DNA of 42,038 nucleotides from NCBI GenBank assembly GCA_039091335.1, contig JAWCME010000001.1, positions 76,024-118,061 on the forward strand. Direction: 5' to 3'. This document shows, piece by piece, positions 7,120 to 31,543 of this stretch (its first letter is position 1; each line of letters starts with the position of its first letter). Position numbers and translations under genes: made by a program. This DNA is from Candidatus Aenigmatarchaeota archaeon (GTDB taxonomy: Archaea > Aenigmatarchaeota > Aenigmatarchaeia > CG10238-14 > SCSR01). The notes beneath the pieces were generated by a model that had not been told where the DNA came from, made no database searches, and saw only the letters and a program-made list of their open reading frames with translations.

Positions 7120-7326
7120 ATGGTTAAATCTTTCCCGATATCCTCAATAGAAAAAGTTGCAAAAAGGGCTGGGTGTGAAAGAATTTCATTTTCAGCGCTA
7201 GAAAGTTTGAGAGAAACTTTGCTTGAAATTTCAGAGAAAATTGCGATTGATGCTGTGGCTGTAGCAAAGCATGCAAAAAGGGTAACTGTTAAAAGGGAAG
7301 ATATTATATTGGCTACAAGGAAGTGA
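7120..7326 (+). CDS. Archaeal histone (HMf-like)
   Basis: FPISSIEKVAKRAGCERIS...AKHAKRVTVKREDIILA histone fold. Confidence 0.93.
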   Translation: MVKSFPISSIEKVAKRAGCERISFSALESLRETLLEISEKIAIDAVAVAKHAKRVTVKREDIILATRK

Positions 7327-7330
7327 TTTT

Positions 7331-7744
7331 TTGGAAAAAACAACTTCAAGTATAAAGGACTTAAAGCCTGGTGGGTTTGTTTTAATAGAAGATGTTCCGT
7401 GTAGAGTTGAAAAAGTAGCTATTTCAACATCGGGTAAAGATTGAAAAAAACAATCGCCCAAACACGGAGCAGCAAAAGCTAGAGTTGATGCCATAGGTCT
7501 ATTTGATAATAGAAGGAGAAGCATAGTTAAGCCTGCTGATGAAACAGTAGAGGTTCCAATAATAATTAAAAAAAATGCACAAATTTTATCAGTAATCGGA
7601 GAAAAAGTTCAACTTATGGACCTAGAAGATTTTTCTGTTTTTGAGTTAGACATTCCAGAAGAAATGAAAGGAAGTTTGCAGGCTGGAAATGAAATACAAT
7701 ACTTTGAAGTAGTAGGAATTAAAACCATTAAACAAATTAAATAA
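7331..7744 (+). CDS. eif5a: Translation factor aIF5A, join(7331..7437,7462..7744), 129 aa after splicing
   Basis: TTG start; MEKTTSSIKDLKPGGFVLIEDVPCRVEKVAISTSGK/HGAAKARVDAIGLFD...QLMDLEDF. The hypusine motif is restored only after removing 24 nt that contain TGA. Missed by the ORF track. Confidence 0.93.
7438..7461 (+). other. 24-nt BHB mRNA intron in aIF5A
   Basis: Central helix GGGU/GCCC, AAA bulges, intron stem GAUUG/CAAUC with A7 loop. Cutting after nt 2 of each bulge gives GGT AA|A CAC. Confidence 0.9.
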
Positions 7745-7822: not shown

Positions 7823-7859
7823 ACTACCATAGGATGGTTGTTTATCAAGGTCAGGCAAC
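7823..7859 (-). other. 3' arm of pre-23S processing stem (BHB)
   Basis: GACCU UGAU AAA CAACCAUCCUAUGGUAGU pairs with the 5' arm at 11066-11102. Confidence 0.92.
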
Positions 7860-8024
7860 CTCAGGCTTTTAGTGGCAGCCAGCTGAGTACCTCGCTCGAA
7901 AGCTTGGTACTTACACTGCTGCTCTATCAAGCTTGTAGTCTACAAGGGCCTTTGTCGCTCTTCCGCTCCTTTCGGAGCAGTTGAGCGATTGGCTGTCTAT
8001 TTTTCCGGATGGCTTCGTCCTTAG

Positions 8025-8062
8025 TTAGACAAGTATAGCACTTAGTTTAAGTGCTATACTTT
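8025..8062 (-). other. 23S BHB intron, 38 nt, ~2754/2755
   Basis: Central helix AGGC/GUCU, bulges AUA and AAC, 14-bp intron stem; removal restores GCAUCUAAG. Confidence 0.9.
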
Positions 8063-8067
8063 ATGCC

Positions 8068-8098
8068 TTCCTGCTAATGGAGTTTAAACTCCATTAGT
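8068..8098 (-). other. 23S BHB intron, 31 nt, ~2749/2750
   Basis: Central helix CCUG/CAGG, bulges AAA and AAG, 9-bp stem; removal restores CCUGAAGGCAU. Confidence 0.9.
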
Positions 8099-8229
8099 TT
8101 CAGGACTTATCCATGATGGCGTGGCTGCCCGGCTGCAATCACAGCCGGTACACTAGAGGCCACGGATGGGTGTTCCTTTCGTACTCACCCATCCTTCCGG
8201 TCAGACAGCCAGCACCTCGAGTAGATAGC

Positions 8230-8263
<34 letters not shown>

Positions 8264-8362
8264 AATGTTCCCCTTTAATCAGTGGACACCTGCACCCTTG
8301 GCTGCTACTGCACAGCCAGGAGGGGGAAAGCCGACAGCGACGCACCAACGCGCCGGGTCAAT

Positions 8363-8399
8363 TTATCTCGCTTCTGGGAATCGAAGACTCCATAAAGCT
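8363..8399 (-). other. 23S intron, 37 nt, ~2477/2478 (H89), relaxed BHB
   Basis: Removal restores GUCCACAUUGAC; central helix GUCC/AGAU has one mismatch. Confidence 0.8.
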
Positions 8400-8571
8400 G
8401 TGGACTTTCACCGGCCACGGGCCCATTATCCCCGAGGTAGCTTTTCTGATACCGCTCACTCCCATCAAGGGAAATGAACGTCTCGTTAGCCCATGCTTTC
8501 GCAGCTGGACTTCTCGCTTTGTGAAGTCCAGTCAGGCTGGCTTTTGCGCTTACACTCTACTCAGGATTTCT

Positions 8572-8657
8572 TTAGGGTGATAGAAGTTAATTCATTAGCT
8601 ACCTCACTTCTCATCTTAAATCAATCTGGAGCAGTATAATCATTCAACTTCTATCAT
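8572..8657 (-). other. 23S BHB intron, 86 nt, ~2306/2307 (H84), containing box C/D motifs
   Basis: Central helix AGGG/CCCU, 11-bp stem UGAUAGAAGUU/AACUUCUAUCA; removal restores GGGUCAGAAAUCC. Confidence 0.92.
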
Positions 8658-9662
8658 GACCCTGATGAGCCAACCTTTGGGCACCCTTGATCTCTTGTCA
8701 AGGGTGTACCGCCCCAGCCGAACTGCCCGCCAGATGCTGTCCTCTTTCGAGTTAGCGATTCGGTTGAGGAGGGGTGGTGTTACACTTTCCTCTCAGCTTT
8801 TGCCCGGAGGCTAAGCCTAATAGCGAGTACCACCTACGCTCTGCAACCGCAACCGAATCGCAACATCAAGCTGCAGTAAAGCTCTACGGGGTCTTCGTTT
8901 CCCACTCGAGGTCTCTGGCCTATTCACCAGAACAGCAATTTCGCTGGGTCCCAGCCTAGGACAGCGAGGAAGTCGTTACGCCATTGAGACGGGCCGTCAA
9001 TTAAACGGCAAGGGATTACGCTACTTTACGACGGTCAGAGTTACCGCCGCCGTTTACCGGGGCTTCTTCCTGTTGGACCAGGCTTTCACACACCGGCACT
9101 GGGCAGGCATCAGAGACTGTACACATGCTTTCGCACTTGCAGTCTCCTATGTTTTTGTTAAACAGTCGCTTCCTCCTTGTCACTGCGACCTGCTGTCCCA
9201 CCCCACTTGCCCTGCTTAGCAGGACTTGTGGTTAGAGACTACAGGCACCCCTTCTAGCTAACATACGGGGCCAATTTGCCGATTTCCCTAGGCTGGGTTC
9301 TCCCAACAGGCCATTGCCTTCTCAGCAAGCATACCTGTGTCGGTTCTCGGTACGGTCATGAAGGATCCGTTGAAGTTCTTTTTCACGGACTCCAGGAATC
9401 GGTCGAACTTCGCATACGCGAAGCTATTCCCACTTTCATCTGCTTCTCCTCTTTATGAGACTCCACAGACTTCAGTGGTTAACTTGCGTCGACCTATCCC
9501 GAAGTGTCAGAACTTCAACTTGCGTTGCCGCATGTACCTTCATGGCATGGGAATATTAACCCATCTCCCATTTGACCGGTTCGGTTAAGATCGGTCTTAG
9601 GACCGGCTAACCGCCAGTTGACGAACATTGCTGGCAAACCCTTATGCTTTAGGCCGTTGGGA

Positions 9663-9679
9663 ATTGAGGATAAATATCT
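9663..9679 (-). other. 23S BHB mini-intron, 17 nt, ~1287/1288
   Basis: Central helix UGAG/CUCA, bulges AAA and AUU, stem GAU/AUC, exon stem GUUGGG/CCCAAC; restores loop UGAGAAU. Confidence 0.88.
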
Positions 9680-11065
9680 TTCTCACCCAACTATGCTGCT
9701 ACTCATGGCAGGATCTTCATTTCCTTGCGGTCCACTTGTTCTTACGAACAAGCTTCTACCCACAAGGAACGCCTTCTTACCCTTGCTTTCGCAAGCTTGG
9801 GTATCGGTAACCAGCTTAGTCCCTTCCATTTTCAGGGCAGAAACTCTCGGCGGGTAAGCTGTTACGCACTTTTTAACTGATGGCTGCTTCTAAGCCTACA
9901 GTCCCGCTGTCTAAGAGTTTCCACTCCCTTCTTCACTTAGCTGGTATTTTGGGACCTTAACCCAAGTCCGGGTTGTTTCCCTCTCGGAGGCTGAGCTTAC
10001 CCCAACCCCCTCACTCCGGCCTTCTAAGACGCTAACAGATTCTGAGTTGGACAGGATGGCTGAGCCTTTCGGCCCTTCACCACCCAATCCGTAGCTTTAC
10101 CCTGTTAGCTGTCTCCGGCCAGGCTGTACTGAGGTACATTTCAGAAGGAACCAGCTATCACCAGTTTCGATTGGCTTTTCACCCCTAACCCAAGGTTACC
10201 CGAGTGATTGGACCTCAACATCGGTATCGGGCTTCCATTTCGCTTTCGCGAAACTTCACCCTACCTTGGGTTAGATCAACTGGCTTCTGGTCTTATCCCA
10301 GCGACTTCAGGCACTTTCATACCCAGCACCACGCTCTTAATGAGCTACGTGCTTTTCGCTTTCGCTACGGATCCGGAGCTTAAACTCCTTATCCTCGCCG
10401 CTGAGATAAACTCCCTGCCCCGTTTTTCAGAACGGATGCTAGGACACTGTAAGCTGCTCTTAGTACTATTTCCTCTCGGAAATTTCCTTCAGAGCAGCAC
10501 CTTTCATGCCCTAGCTGACTATCTCCATCTTGGTTTCAGGCTCTTTTCACCTCCCTTTCGGGATACTTTTCAGCTTTCTTTCACAATACTATTGCGCTAT
10601 CGGACTTGGTTAGTATTTAGGGTTGGATGTTGATGCCACCCAGATTCCTGCTCCATATCCAAGGAACAGTACTCAGGATGCTTGGCATTTTCCTTCTCTC
10701 CTTCCTCTACGAGGCTATCACTCTCTAAGGCGGTTCTTTCCAGAACACTTCGAGTCGGAGAGTTAGGAAAGACCCAAGTCCTACAACTCCACATCCTTTC
10801 TTTCTTTTCGAAAGAAAGTTCGGTTTGCCCTTTACCCCTTTCACTCGCCGTTACTCAGGGTATCTCAATTGATTTCTTTTCCTGCGCCTACTAAGATGCT
10901 TCACTTCGGCGCGTTCCTCTCCCTTTCGGGATAGCTCTTTAAGAGCTGGGAATCCCATTGATAGATCCTGGGGTCAATTCCTCCATGCGGATAACCCAGG
11001 CTTATCGCAACTTGGTACGTACTTCATCAGCTAACCAAGCCAAGCCATCCACCAAGTGGAGTGGT

Positions 11066-11102
11066 GTTGCCAGACCTCTTTGACCAACCATCCTATGGTA
11101 GT
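11066..11102 (-). other. 5' arm of pre-23S processing stem (BHB)
   Basis: ACUACCAUAGGAUGGUUG GUCA AAG AGGUC; 18-bp outer helix with 7823-7840. Confidence 0.92.
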
Positions 11103-15424: not shown

Positions 15425-15527
15425 TGGACCGGCGGGGATTTGAACCCCGAGCTTGCAGAGGTTTAAACTTCTCCGCTTTGCATTCGCCTTTTTATAGAGC
15501 GGCGATCTACCATTGATCTACCGGCCC
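15425..15527 (-). tRNA. tRNA-Ala(UGC) with introns at 33/34 (15483-15495) and 45/46 (15453-15470)
   Basis: G3.U70 acceptor pair, A73. Central helices CGCU/GGCG and GCGG/CUGC; the spliced form is a normal cloverleaf. Confidence 0.92.
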
Positions 15528-16642: not shown

Positions 16643-16699
16643 TTTTTCTTAAGGAGGTGATCCAGCCGCACGTTCCCGTACGGCTACCTTGTGGCGACT

Positions 16700-16796
16700 T
16701 TAGGCTCTTGGAAGCTCATAATAAATCAATTCACCTCCAACTCATCATTAATCAGAGTCAAGCCATTTTCTCATATTATTTTAGAGCTTCCAAAAT
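16700..16796 (-). other. 16S BHB intron, 97 nt, between A1492 and A1493, containing a full box C/D set
   Basis: Central helix GGGC/GCCU, 12-bp stem UUUUGGAAGCUC/GAGCUUCCAAGA; removal restores GGGGCUAAGUCG. Confidence 0.92.
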
Positions 16797-16869
16797 TAGC
16801 CCCTCTCGCAAAACCCAAACTCGACTTTCCCAAAAAGAGAAAGCCTTGTTTGGGTTTCACTCGATTGGC

Positions 16870-16906
<37 letters not shown>

Positions 16907-16915
16907 GACGAACGA

Positions 16916-16959
16916 ATCCACGCAATATGAAGCATTTCCAGCCTCTTTTCATAATTGCA
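16916..16959 (-). other. 16S BHB intron, 44 nt, ~1363/1364
   Basis: Central helix UCAU/GUGG, exon helix AACG/CGUU, stem GCAA/UUGC. Confidence 0.88.
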
Positions 16960-17414
16960 TGATGACGTTCGCCTACTAGGGATTCCGGCTTCACGAGGAC
17001 GAGTTACAGCCCTCGATCTGAACTGAGCATGCTTTTAGGGGATTAGCTTCTCCTTTCGGAGTTGCATCCCATTGTGGCATGCATTGTGGGTCGCGTGTAG
17101 CCCAGGAGATTCGGGGCATACGGACCTACCGTCGCCCACACCTTCCTCCCACTTATCGCGGGCAGTCTCCCATGAGTGCACTTCCTCCGGAGAGGAAGTT
17201 AGCAACATGGGATGTGGGTCTCGCTCGTTAACCGACTTAACGGCACGCCTCACGGTACGAGCTGACGATGGCCATGCACCACCTCTCAGCTTGTCTGGTA
17301 AGCCCTTCAGACTGACCCTCATCCTGCTGTCAACCCTGGTAAGATTCCCGGCGTTGAATCCAATTAAACCGCAGCCTCCACCCCTTGTGTGCTCCCCCGC
17401 CAATTCCCTTAAGT

Positions 17415-17470
17415 TAGGTGGAAGAAGTGGTATGTTTATATTAAATTTTTAAAAAAACACCACTTCCTCT
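17415..17470 (-). other. 16S BHB intron, 56 nt, 908/909
   Basis: Central helix GGUG/CACC, exon helix AAG/CUU, 11-bp stem; restores GUGAAACUUAA. Confidence 0.92.
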
Positions 17471-17581
17471 TTCACCCTTGCGGGTATACTCCCCAGGTGG
17501 CCCGCTTAACACCTACGCTCCGGCACTGCAAGCTCCCGAGAAGCCTGCAACACCAAGCGGGCATCGTTTACGGCTAGGACT

Positions 17582-17662
17582 TTCCCGCACGAGTAGGAAA
17601 TCCTAGCTTGTTGGGTCTTAAATTTCTTCATATTTTATCAGAAGATACTCCCAACCTCGTGT
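17582..17662 (-). other. 16S BHB intron, 81 nt, 801/802, with internal D'/C' motif
   Basis: Central helix CCCG/CGGG, stem CACGAG/CUCGUG; restores CCGGUAGUCC. Confidence 0.92.
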
Positions 17663-18400
17663 ACCGGGGTATCTAATCCCGATCGCTCCCCTAGCTTTCG
17701 TCCCTCACAGTCAGACCCGTTCCAGCAAGACGCCTTCGCCACAGGTTGTCCCCTTTGGATTAAAGGATTTAACCCCTACCCAAAGAGTACATCTTGCCTC
17801 TCCCGGTCTCAAGCCCGAAAGTATCCTCAGCAAGCCCTCCAGTTTACTGGAGGATTTCACCAAGGACTTTTCAGGCCTGCTACGGACTCTTTAGACCCAA
17901 TAATCGTGACCATCACTTGGAGTGCGGGTATTACCGCGGTGGCTGGCACCCGTCTTACCCACTCCTTATTCGCCTTCCTGTTTTCAGAAGGCAAAAGCTC
18001 TTGCAGAGCAAGAGCACTCCGGGTTCCCTTATCTCGCGTTAGCGAATTGTAAAGTTTTCGCGCCTGCTGCGTTCCGTAGAACCTGGACTCATGTCTCAGA
18101 GTCCATCTCCGGGCTCCTACTTCCATAGCCCGTAGGCGTTATCGCTTTGTTGGTTCGTTACACCAACAACAGGCTGATACCATGCAGTCCCATCCTTAGC
18201 CGCAATTGCTTTTGTTGTTGGAACCTTCCAGTATCCAACAACTATGGAGTATTGAGCTCAGTTTCCCGAGTTTATCCTCCAGCTAAGGGTAGGTTGACTG
18301 CACATTACGGAGCAGTTCGCCGAGGGCTTTCCCCTCTCGACTCGCATGGCTTAGTCGAACCCGGATAGCAATGGTCTCTGGCGGGATCAACCAGAATTTT

Positions 18401-18768: not shown

Positions 18769-18869
18769 GGCCCGAATGGTGCAGGCTCAAATGCTGTAAT
18801 GGTCTAGCACAAGGGCCTGTGGAGCCCTAGAAAATTGGGGAAACTCGGGTTCAAATCCCGATTCGGGCC
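18769..18869 (+). tRNA. tRNA-His(GUG) with encoded G-1 and introns at 17/17a (18787-18799) and 45/46 (18831-18842)
   Basis: G-1:C73; spliced D stem GUGC/GCAC; central helices GCAG/CUGU and CCCU/GGGG. Confidence 0.9.
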
Positions 18870-19240: not shown

Positions 19241-19365
19241 TGCTGGGAGTGGGATTTGAACCCACGACTTCTGCGATTCACCTTTCATTTTTTAATCAAA
19301 GCTCATAAGATTATGAGCGCAGCTTAAGCTTTTACAATGTTCTAACCAGACTGAACTATCCCAGC
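19241..19365 (-). tRNA. tRNA(CAU), probably elongator Met, with introns at 38/39 (19276-19310) and ~25/26 (19324-19338)
   Basis: Removing 35+15 nt gives CUGCG CUCAUAA CGCAG. The 38/39 intron has helix UCAU/GUGA; the first junction is uncertain, and Ile2 cannot be fully excluded. Confidence 0.8.
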
Positions 19366-31444: not shown

Positions 31445-31543
31445 CGCTGGGGATGGGATTTGAACCCATACTCTCCTTTCGGAGAACCAGCTCTCGAGGT
31501 TCACCTTTATATCTGGCGCCTTACCTTGTTCGGCCACCCCAGC
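31445..31543 (-). tRNA. tRNA-Ser(CGA) with intron at 30/31 (31500-31512)
   Basis: Long variable arm, G73; central helix CGCC/GGUG, exon helix GG/CU. Confidence 0.92.

Follow-up and report, generated by a model that had tools for sequence, protein, structure and literature searches.

The closest precedent for an intron of the archaeal tRNA type in a protein-coding gene is the BHB intron that reportedly lies in the cbf5 pre-mRNA of Crenarchaeota, and which is said to have been described by Watanabe in 2002, Yoshinari in 2006, and Yokobori in 2009. According to a 2020 paper (PMC7714728), no archaeal coding sequence other than cbf5 was known to contain a BHB intron, and cbf5 is still the sole case cited in the 2025 literature searched. 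The candidate intron that we describe here, located in the aIF5A gene of an archaeon of the DPANN lineage Aenigmatarchaeota, resembles the cbf5 intron in that it is short, lies within the coding sequence, has a relaxed BHB, and is presumably a substrate of the tRNA-splicing endonuclease and ligase. It differs from it in that it resides in another gene and another phylum, measures only 24 nt, and sits inside the codon of an invariant lysine that is posttranslationally modified. Moreover, the EndA of this lineage is alpha4-like with a DPANN loop, in contrast to the crenarchaeal heterotetramer, and the splicing of aIF5A is predicted from its sequence.

Archaeal tRNA and rRNA genes carry noncanonical mini-introns whose relaxed BHB or HBh' motifs are cleaved by EndA enzymes of broad specificity (Kaneta 2018, PMC5829648). 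The aIF5A insert shares with them the 4-bp helix between the exon and the 3' end of the intron, the 3-nt bulge, and the cut after the second bulge base, and it ends in AA, as do the 13- to 19-nt inserts of tRNA genes on the same stretch of DNA. Unlike these, its substrate would be an mRNA, so that splicing must precede or compete with translation, and the codons limit what the exon half of the motif can be. An mRNA is likewise the substrate of the splicing endonuclease in Haloferax volcanii, where the HVO_1309 transcript carries a BHB intron in its 5' UTR and cleavage by the endonuclease was confirmed in vitro (Schwarz 2020, PMC7714728); that intron, however, is located in an untranslated leader and leaves the reading frame uninterrupted. 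Finally, the locus bears a likeness to the bypass of T4 gene 60, with which it has in common a short untranslated gap in the coding sequence that comes with a hairpin and a stop codon and lies between matching codons, although the T4 bypass acts at the ribosome and not on the RNA.

An insert within the hypusine-lysine codon of aIF5A

The window, i.e., the whole stretch of 42,038 nt that was analyzed, comes from a genome of 570 kb in 29 contigs with 33% G+C and an estimated completeness of 87%. The initial annotation had claimed that the invariant S-G-K-H-G motif of aIF5A is interrupted by 24 nt with an in-frame TGA, and the sequence confirms this: across the site, the genome reads ...TCG GGT AAA GAT TGA AAA AAA CAA TCG CCC AAA CAC GGA..., and the unspliced open reading frame (7331-7444) ends at this TGA after the 37 aa that had been announced for it. 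If position 7437 is instead joined to 7462, AA and A form the codon of Lys36, as the annotation had proposed, and a 129-aa protein results (...STSGKHGAAKA...; predicted exon junction in the mRNA, TCGGGTAAACACGGA). This product matches NF003076, the NCBIfam equivalog of aIF5A, over positions 1 to 128 of 129 with 159.8 bits (cut-off, 138) and TIGR00037 with 139 bits, while of the two Pfam domains, the IF5A N-terminal one passes its cut-off and the C-terminal OB-fold narrowly misses its own. Neither exon contains any further stop or frameshift, and the TTG start is aligned with the ATG of the orthologue in G015 (MEKT...), one of the intron-bearing relatives described below. The coordinates of all features are collected in Table 1.

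Table 1. Features of the aIF5A locus and of the window; cut sites and intron are predicted
Feature	Position	Strand	Basis or remark
PIN-domain protein with C-terminal cysteine-rich (CxxC) segment	6560-7078	-	matches PRK12496 family
Archaeal histone gene	7120-7326	+	ends 4 nt before aIF5A start
Shine-Dalgarno-like AGGAAGTGA	7319-7327		upstream of aIF5A start
aIF5A gene, whole	7331-7744	+	TTG start to TAA stop
aIF5A exon 1	7331-7437	+	TTG start; last 2 bases are AA of Lys36 codon; holds exon half of central helix
Central 4-bp helix H, exon strand GGGU	7432-7435	+	MFE fold; partner 7456-7459
5' bulge AAA	7436-7438	+	MFE fold; predicted cut after A7437
Candidate 24-nt BHB mini-intron, AGATTGAAAAAAACAATCGCCCAA = AGAUUGAAAAAAACAAUCGCCCAA	7438-7461	+	sequence, fold, shuffles; identical in independent Logan contig
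Inner hairpin h', GAUUG (7439-7443), loop AAAAAAA (7444-7450), CAAUC (7451-7455)	7439-7455	+	MFE fold
In-frame TGA, terminates unspliced frame after 37 aa	7442-7444	+	ORF translation
Central helix H, intron strand GCCC	7456-7459	+	MFE fold
3' splice-site AAA	7460-7462	+	in 6-nt loop side (AAACAC), no clean 3-nt bulge; predicted cut after A7461
aIF5A exon 2	7462-7744	+	third base of Lys36 codon through TAA stop
23S rRNA gene	7849-11076	-	3,228 nt
tRNA gene	15425-15527	-	Rfam
16S rRNA gene	16652-18397	-	1,746 nt
tRNA gene	18785-18869	+	Rfam
tRNA gene	19241-19365	-	Rfam
Deoxyhypusine synthase, intact, 308 aa	20103-21029	-	family match, 322 bits, residues 10-308 vs 21-315 of 318 profile positions
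tRNA gene	31445-31543	-	Rfam

In the RNA of positions 7415 to 7485, the MFE and centroid structures agree (-12.8 kcal/mol, z = -2.1), and this fold is the very one that had been put forward, in which GGGU pairs with GCCC next to an AAA bulge and a GAUUG/CAAUC hairpin. EndA cuts such motifs after the second base of the bulge. The outer helix, which joins exon to exon, is short, at about 2 bp (U7430-C7431 with G7466-G7467), and lies beyond a loop side of 6 nt; "relaxed BHB," the term already used in the annotation with reference to the weak outer helix, is for this reason the right description. Accordingly named, the motif departs from the strict hBHBh' form (a 4-bp helix with two opposite 3-nt bulges) and has the relaxed HBh' form, and the same is true of the inserts in the two relatives G015 and G066. 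An in-register BHB is very improbable by chance. When the window insert was shuffled 200,000 times with its composition preserved, a central helix together with 4 bp or more of inner helix, in the register that restores the frame, appeared at a frequency of 1.5e-5, and none of the shuffles reached the 5-bp inner helix that is observed. The corresponding frequency of an in-register BHB was 1.6e-4 for the insert of G066 and below 1 in 200,000 for that of G015.

Same-site inserts in relatives

The initial annotation had suggested scanning relatives for BHB-bounded inserts, and this proved fruitful. aIF5A was surveyed at three levels (family, 70 genomes; order, 118; class, 371), and just two further species, G015 and G066, have an interrupted gene. 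Both belong to other genera of the same family. The insert is carried by only 3 of the 323 aIF5A-bearing genomes of the class. The window gene (G000, genus g1) has its 24 nt between TCGGGTAA and ACACGGA, with a central helix GGGU:GCCC and an inner helix GAUUG:CAAUC of 5 bp. In G015 (genus g16), 28 nt (AAATTGAAGTCCACCTTCAATTGCCTAA) are inserted between CCGGGTAA and GCATGGT, the central helix is GGGU:GCCU, and the inner helix AAUUGAAG:CUUCAAUU spans 8 bp, while G066 (genus g5) has 29 nt (ATATCATAGCTAAAAACTTGATAGCTCAA) between TCGGGTAA and ACATGGT, a central helix GGGU:GCUC, and an inner helix UAUCA:UGAUA of 5 bp. All three inserts occupy the same internucleotide position and adopt the same helix-bulge-hairpin fold. 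The inner helices have no sequence relationship to one another, although each is completely paired, and the intron strand of the central helix differs by C/U changes only, with pairing to GGGU retained; the changes are compensatory, in what is a small sample of three genes in the family and four read junctions in another phylum. Since 28 and 29 nt shift the frame, the genes of G015 and G066 are unreadable unless the inserts are removed at exactly these points. The site context is CGGGTAA in all three intron-bearing genes, compared with GGA, GGC, GGT, or GGG and varied preceding codons in the intron-less relatives. Partial or weak aIF5A matches in G080, G069, G092, G131, G176, G210, G241, G255, G273, and G327 were traced to contig ends or N-masked stretches rather than introns.

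These data bear on the alternative that survives best, namely, that the gene is a decaying pseudogene or otherwise nonfunctional, that the insert is a neutral lesion, and that aIF5A has been lost or is supplied by a host. DPANN genomes are reduced and host dependent, the assembly is 87% complete, and EndA was not found in it, all of which may be counted for this reading. Yet the lesion would have to recur at an identical position in three genera, each time with a precise BHB, and in exons that show no other lesions. The exons are, moreover, under purifying selection, as pN/pS is 0.14 between the window gene and its closest intron-less relative, G008, 0.19 between G015 and G001, and 0.28 to 0.29 among the intron-bearing genes, where pS is near saturation; a value of 0.96 for G066 against G028 was set aside because its reading frame had been extracted wrongly. 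Deoxyhypusine synthase, which had been reported as intact, indeed gives a full-length family match on the minus strand, and to our knowledge its sole substrate is aIF5A; an aIF5A match above the family cut-off is also kept in 317 of the 371 genomes of the class. A decaying gene thus strikes us as quite unlikely. As for a possible intact second copy of aIF5A, which the initial annotation had considered as evidence against an intron, no second locus was found by tblastn and profile search of the 87%-complete assembly.

Same-codon introns in a second phylum

We extended the comparison to 401 evenly sampled genomes of the GTDB phylum to which a Nezhaarchaeota MAG belongs (Thermoproteota, inferred from the seed genome). 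Here, aIF5A is split at profile positions 33 to 39 in five genomes, and four of the five split junctions, those of G388, G508, G396, and G474, read as BHB introns at AA/A of the Lys codon (cut sites are marked by a slash). The first three have 35-nt introns with a central helix CGGA:UCCG and an inner helix with compensatory changes, and G474 has a 19-nt intron with a central helix GGGU:GCCU. The intron of G724 (L298, C1, around 949,927-949,954) is 32 nt long, lies one base upstream, and splits the codon as A/AG; its central helix, CUGG:CCAG, is perfect, and its inner helix spans 8 bp. When the exons are joined at cuts that follow the second base of each bulge, GKHG is restored in G015, G066, G388, G508, G396, and G474 alike.

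When the DNA pattern GGGTAAAN{10,40}GCYYAARCAYGG was run over genome contigs, the matches listed (at least 120 loci) were chance occurrences only, mostly bacterial, and none of them lay in aIF5A. Among metagenome contigs, the best 80 aIF5A loci were all uninterrupted, in a search that is biased against split genes both by its ranking on the best tblastn segment and by its junction-spanning pattern. One apparent split, at positions 820 to 860 of L183 (metagenome contig Ga0209642_10178687), was rejected, as the contig is probably chimeric or rearranged; on it, the aIF5A frame runs from residue 26 on and is fused upstream to an unrelated coding sequence (...FKKSGIDVLANTSVEKVDVSKSGKHG...).

Splicing context of the genome

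The genome is rich in other inserts. Its 23S gene is about 240 nt longer than the 2,987-nt Rfam model and its 16S gene about 270 nt longer than the 1,478-nt model, which implies several short introns in each case. The four tRNA genes of the window, three of which are missed by ARAGORN, measure 85 to 125 nt and contain inserts of 13 to 50 nt, several at noncanonical positions and two within one gene; the inserts of 13 and 19 nt are located in the variable-loop region and have AA at their end. A genome-wide scan for BHB motifs combined with open reading frames returned 4,997 matches, mostly junctions of adjacent genes, and became useful after filtering for the A...AA intron signature. Outside the window, the TyrRS gene carries a 21-nt BHB insert (C1:30935-30955, minus strand; GUGG AA/A CUGA AUUAAA UCAG CCAC AA/U) just before the region of the HIGH motif (...FEPSG/IAHLG...), and the joined product aligns in one stretch, residues 1 to 350 against positions 1 to 338 of 342, with 385.8 bits. 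For SecY (C1, approximately 3858, minus strand) and AlaRS (C9, approximately 2074, minus strand), homology starts abruptly at a predicted BHB junction, at profile positions 150 and 242, respectively, and these genes are probably interrupted too, with exon boundaries that are only predicted.

Regarding the enzymes, the RtcB ligase is present (C25:37091-37729, 284.5 bits, profile positions 1 to 209) and is cut off by the contig end. The initial annotation had counted on an EndA of this genome; this did not hold for the 87%-complete assembly, from which EndA (PF01974) is absent, though 59 of 61 relatives have it, the intron-bearing G015 included. Weak tblastn matches to EndA on contig C29 proved spurious, lying out of frame inside radA-like and Bud32-like genes. 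The many inserts in rRNA and tRNA genes nevertheless argue that the enzyme must exist in this organism. The 189-aa EndA of G015 aligns over its full length to the alpha4 endonuclease of M. jannaschii and carries a basic 6-aa stretch inserted between catalytic Tyr and catalytic His; ARMAN-2 EndA has extra residues there as well. "L3" loops in alpha4-type EndA of DPANN archaea have been linked to disrupted tRNA genes and broad specificity (Kaneta 2018, PMC5829648), and we infer that EndA in this archaeal family may likewise be of broad specificity. With its outer helix of about 2 bp and its 3' site in a loop of 6 nt, the aIF5A motif would not be an expected substrate of a strict alpha4 enzyme.

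With this context in hand, translational bypassing of the T4 gene 60 type can be weighed, in which ribosomes would take off at AAA (7436-7438), skip the hairpin, and land at AAA (7460-7462), so that the same protein is made with no splicing. The take-off and landing codons do match in the window gene and in G066 (AAA and AAA in both) and nearly do so in G015 (AAA and AAG), and there is a hairpin with a stop codon close by, but this stop follows the take-off codon at a distance of one or more codons instead of directly. Bypassing also gives no role to the exon-intron helix GGGU:GCCC, which is kept by pairing-preserving C/U changes; it would need AGA as the landing codon in G474; and it leaves unexplained both the phase-1 variant of G724, whose codon is split as A/AG, and the TyrRS insert of the same genome, which has no matching codons. 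As the genome is, in addition, clearly reliant on BHB splicing for its rRNA and tRNA, we give bypassing only a slim chance, lower still than that of a decaying gene.

Two remaining readings have next to no probability. That the 24 nt are an assembly or sequencing artefact and absent from the DNA of the organism might be suspected of a short-read MAG, but Logan contig SRR27730043_102194, from an independent assembly of run SRR27730043 with a different assembler, is identical to the window over 293 nt, across the insert (it takes in the histone gene that precedes aIF5A and continues for 266 nt past the end of that gene), and homologous inserts occur in independently assembled genomes of other genera and of another phylum. 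Translation of the insert, through a TGA read as an amino acid, would fit its length, a multiple of 3, and its single TGA, but in the relatives the inserts of 28 and 29 nt break the frame and include TGA or TAA, those elsewhere have 35 and 19 nt, the 8 extra residues beside the modified lysine would disrupt the invariant hypusine loop, and the spliced product aligns collinearly to the profile of the family.

A candidate mRNA intron and its history

Taken together, we consider it very probable that positions 7438 to 7461 are a BHB mini-intron of the archaeal tRNA type in the pre-mRNA of the only aIF5A gene of the genome. The proposal of a BHB intron in the hypusine-lysine codon, made in the initial annotation, is supported by the geometry of the site, the single gene copy, the agreement of a second assembler, the inserts of the relatives, the selection on the exons, the intron-rich genome, and the presence of RtcB, from which splicing itself is predicted. 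Against it count the failure to find EndA in the 87%-complete assembly, the relaxed form of the motif, and the rarity of the insert in the class. Cleavage, ligation, the formation of an intron circle, and their timing relative to translation may be pictured as follows. The pre-mRNA, probably shared with the histone gene, would fold locally into the HBh' form, in which GGGU would pair with GCCC at the 3' end of the intron, the AAA bulge and the 5-bp hairpin would lie on the 5' side, and the 3' site would be placed in an A-rich loop. EndA, which in this archaeal family consists of one alpha4-like subunit and has a loop insert of the DPANN type, would then cut after A7437 and after A7461, whereupon RtcB would ligate the exons into the AAA codon of Lys36 and the 24-nt intron would probably be circularized. 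Only the spliced mRNA would yield the 129-aa factor that deoxyhypusine synthase can modify, and unspliced mRNA would yield the 37-aa fragment. That unspliced mRNA might serve as a control point, as had been suggested, is speculation.

How the intron came to lie in this codon is a separate question. In an aIF5A tree built on 130 columns only, the window gene groups with G008 (100/98) and G015 with G001 (99/89), both partners being intron-less, and G066 falls inside its own genus among three intron-less species. The Lys codon would, on this distribution, be a recurrent insertion target, or else the intron would have been lost precisely many times. The two phases, AA/A and A/AG, which are 1 nt apart, argue for at least two independent insertions. 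Intron paralogues in the genome, which would suggest transposition, were limited to A-rich chance matches. It is tempting to speculate that the hypusine-lysine codon truly is a hot spot at which endonuclease-free BHB mini-introns insert, since introns are found in one codon in two phyla and in two phases, with the closest sampled relatives intron-less; we regard this idea as rather unlikely. If it were correct, introns would be gained by active, site-directed insertion into the invariant GGN-AAR-CAY-GG rather than by passive inheritance. A possible route would be that EndA and RtcB splice in reverse, with the 4-nt strand complementary to the exon as their guide, and that the product is then copied into DNA. 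The synthesis of an essential translation factor would, as a by-product, hinge on the tRNA-splicing machinery.

The proposed mechanism is of a known kind; what is new is the gene, the lineage, and the recurrence in the same codon, and with them the DPANN instance, the intron-less sister taxa, and the phase-1 variant. Our search of the literature on aIF5A and BHB introns found no publication describing this intron. If the aIF5A mRNA is spliced as predicted, an essential translation factor joins the list of coding sequences with BHB introns, and the splicing of mRNA by the tRNA machinery extends to DPANN archaea with an alpha4-like endonuclease. In genomes of this sort, gene callers would then list aIF5A as absent or truncated. 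Along with the introns that the other phylum has in this codon, the locus would provide a concrete system for studying the gain and loss of BHB introns and the interplay of splicing with cotranscriptional translation.

Neighboring genes

The histone gene and aIF5A, which are separated by 4 nt, are likely cotranscribed, and a sequence resembling a Shine-Dalgarno site overlaps the end of the former (Table 1). Downstream, only about 100 nt separate the aIF5A stop from the 3' end of the 23S gene, and the two genes are convergent. The opposite strand directly before the histone and aIF5A genes encodes a PIN-domain protein with a cysteine-rich C terminus, which may be Nob1-like.
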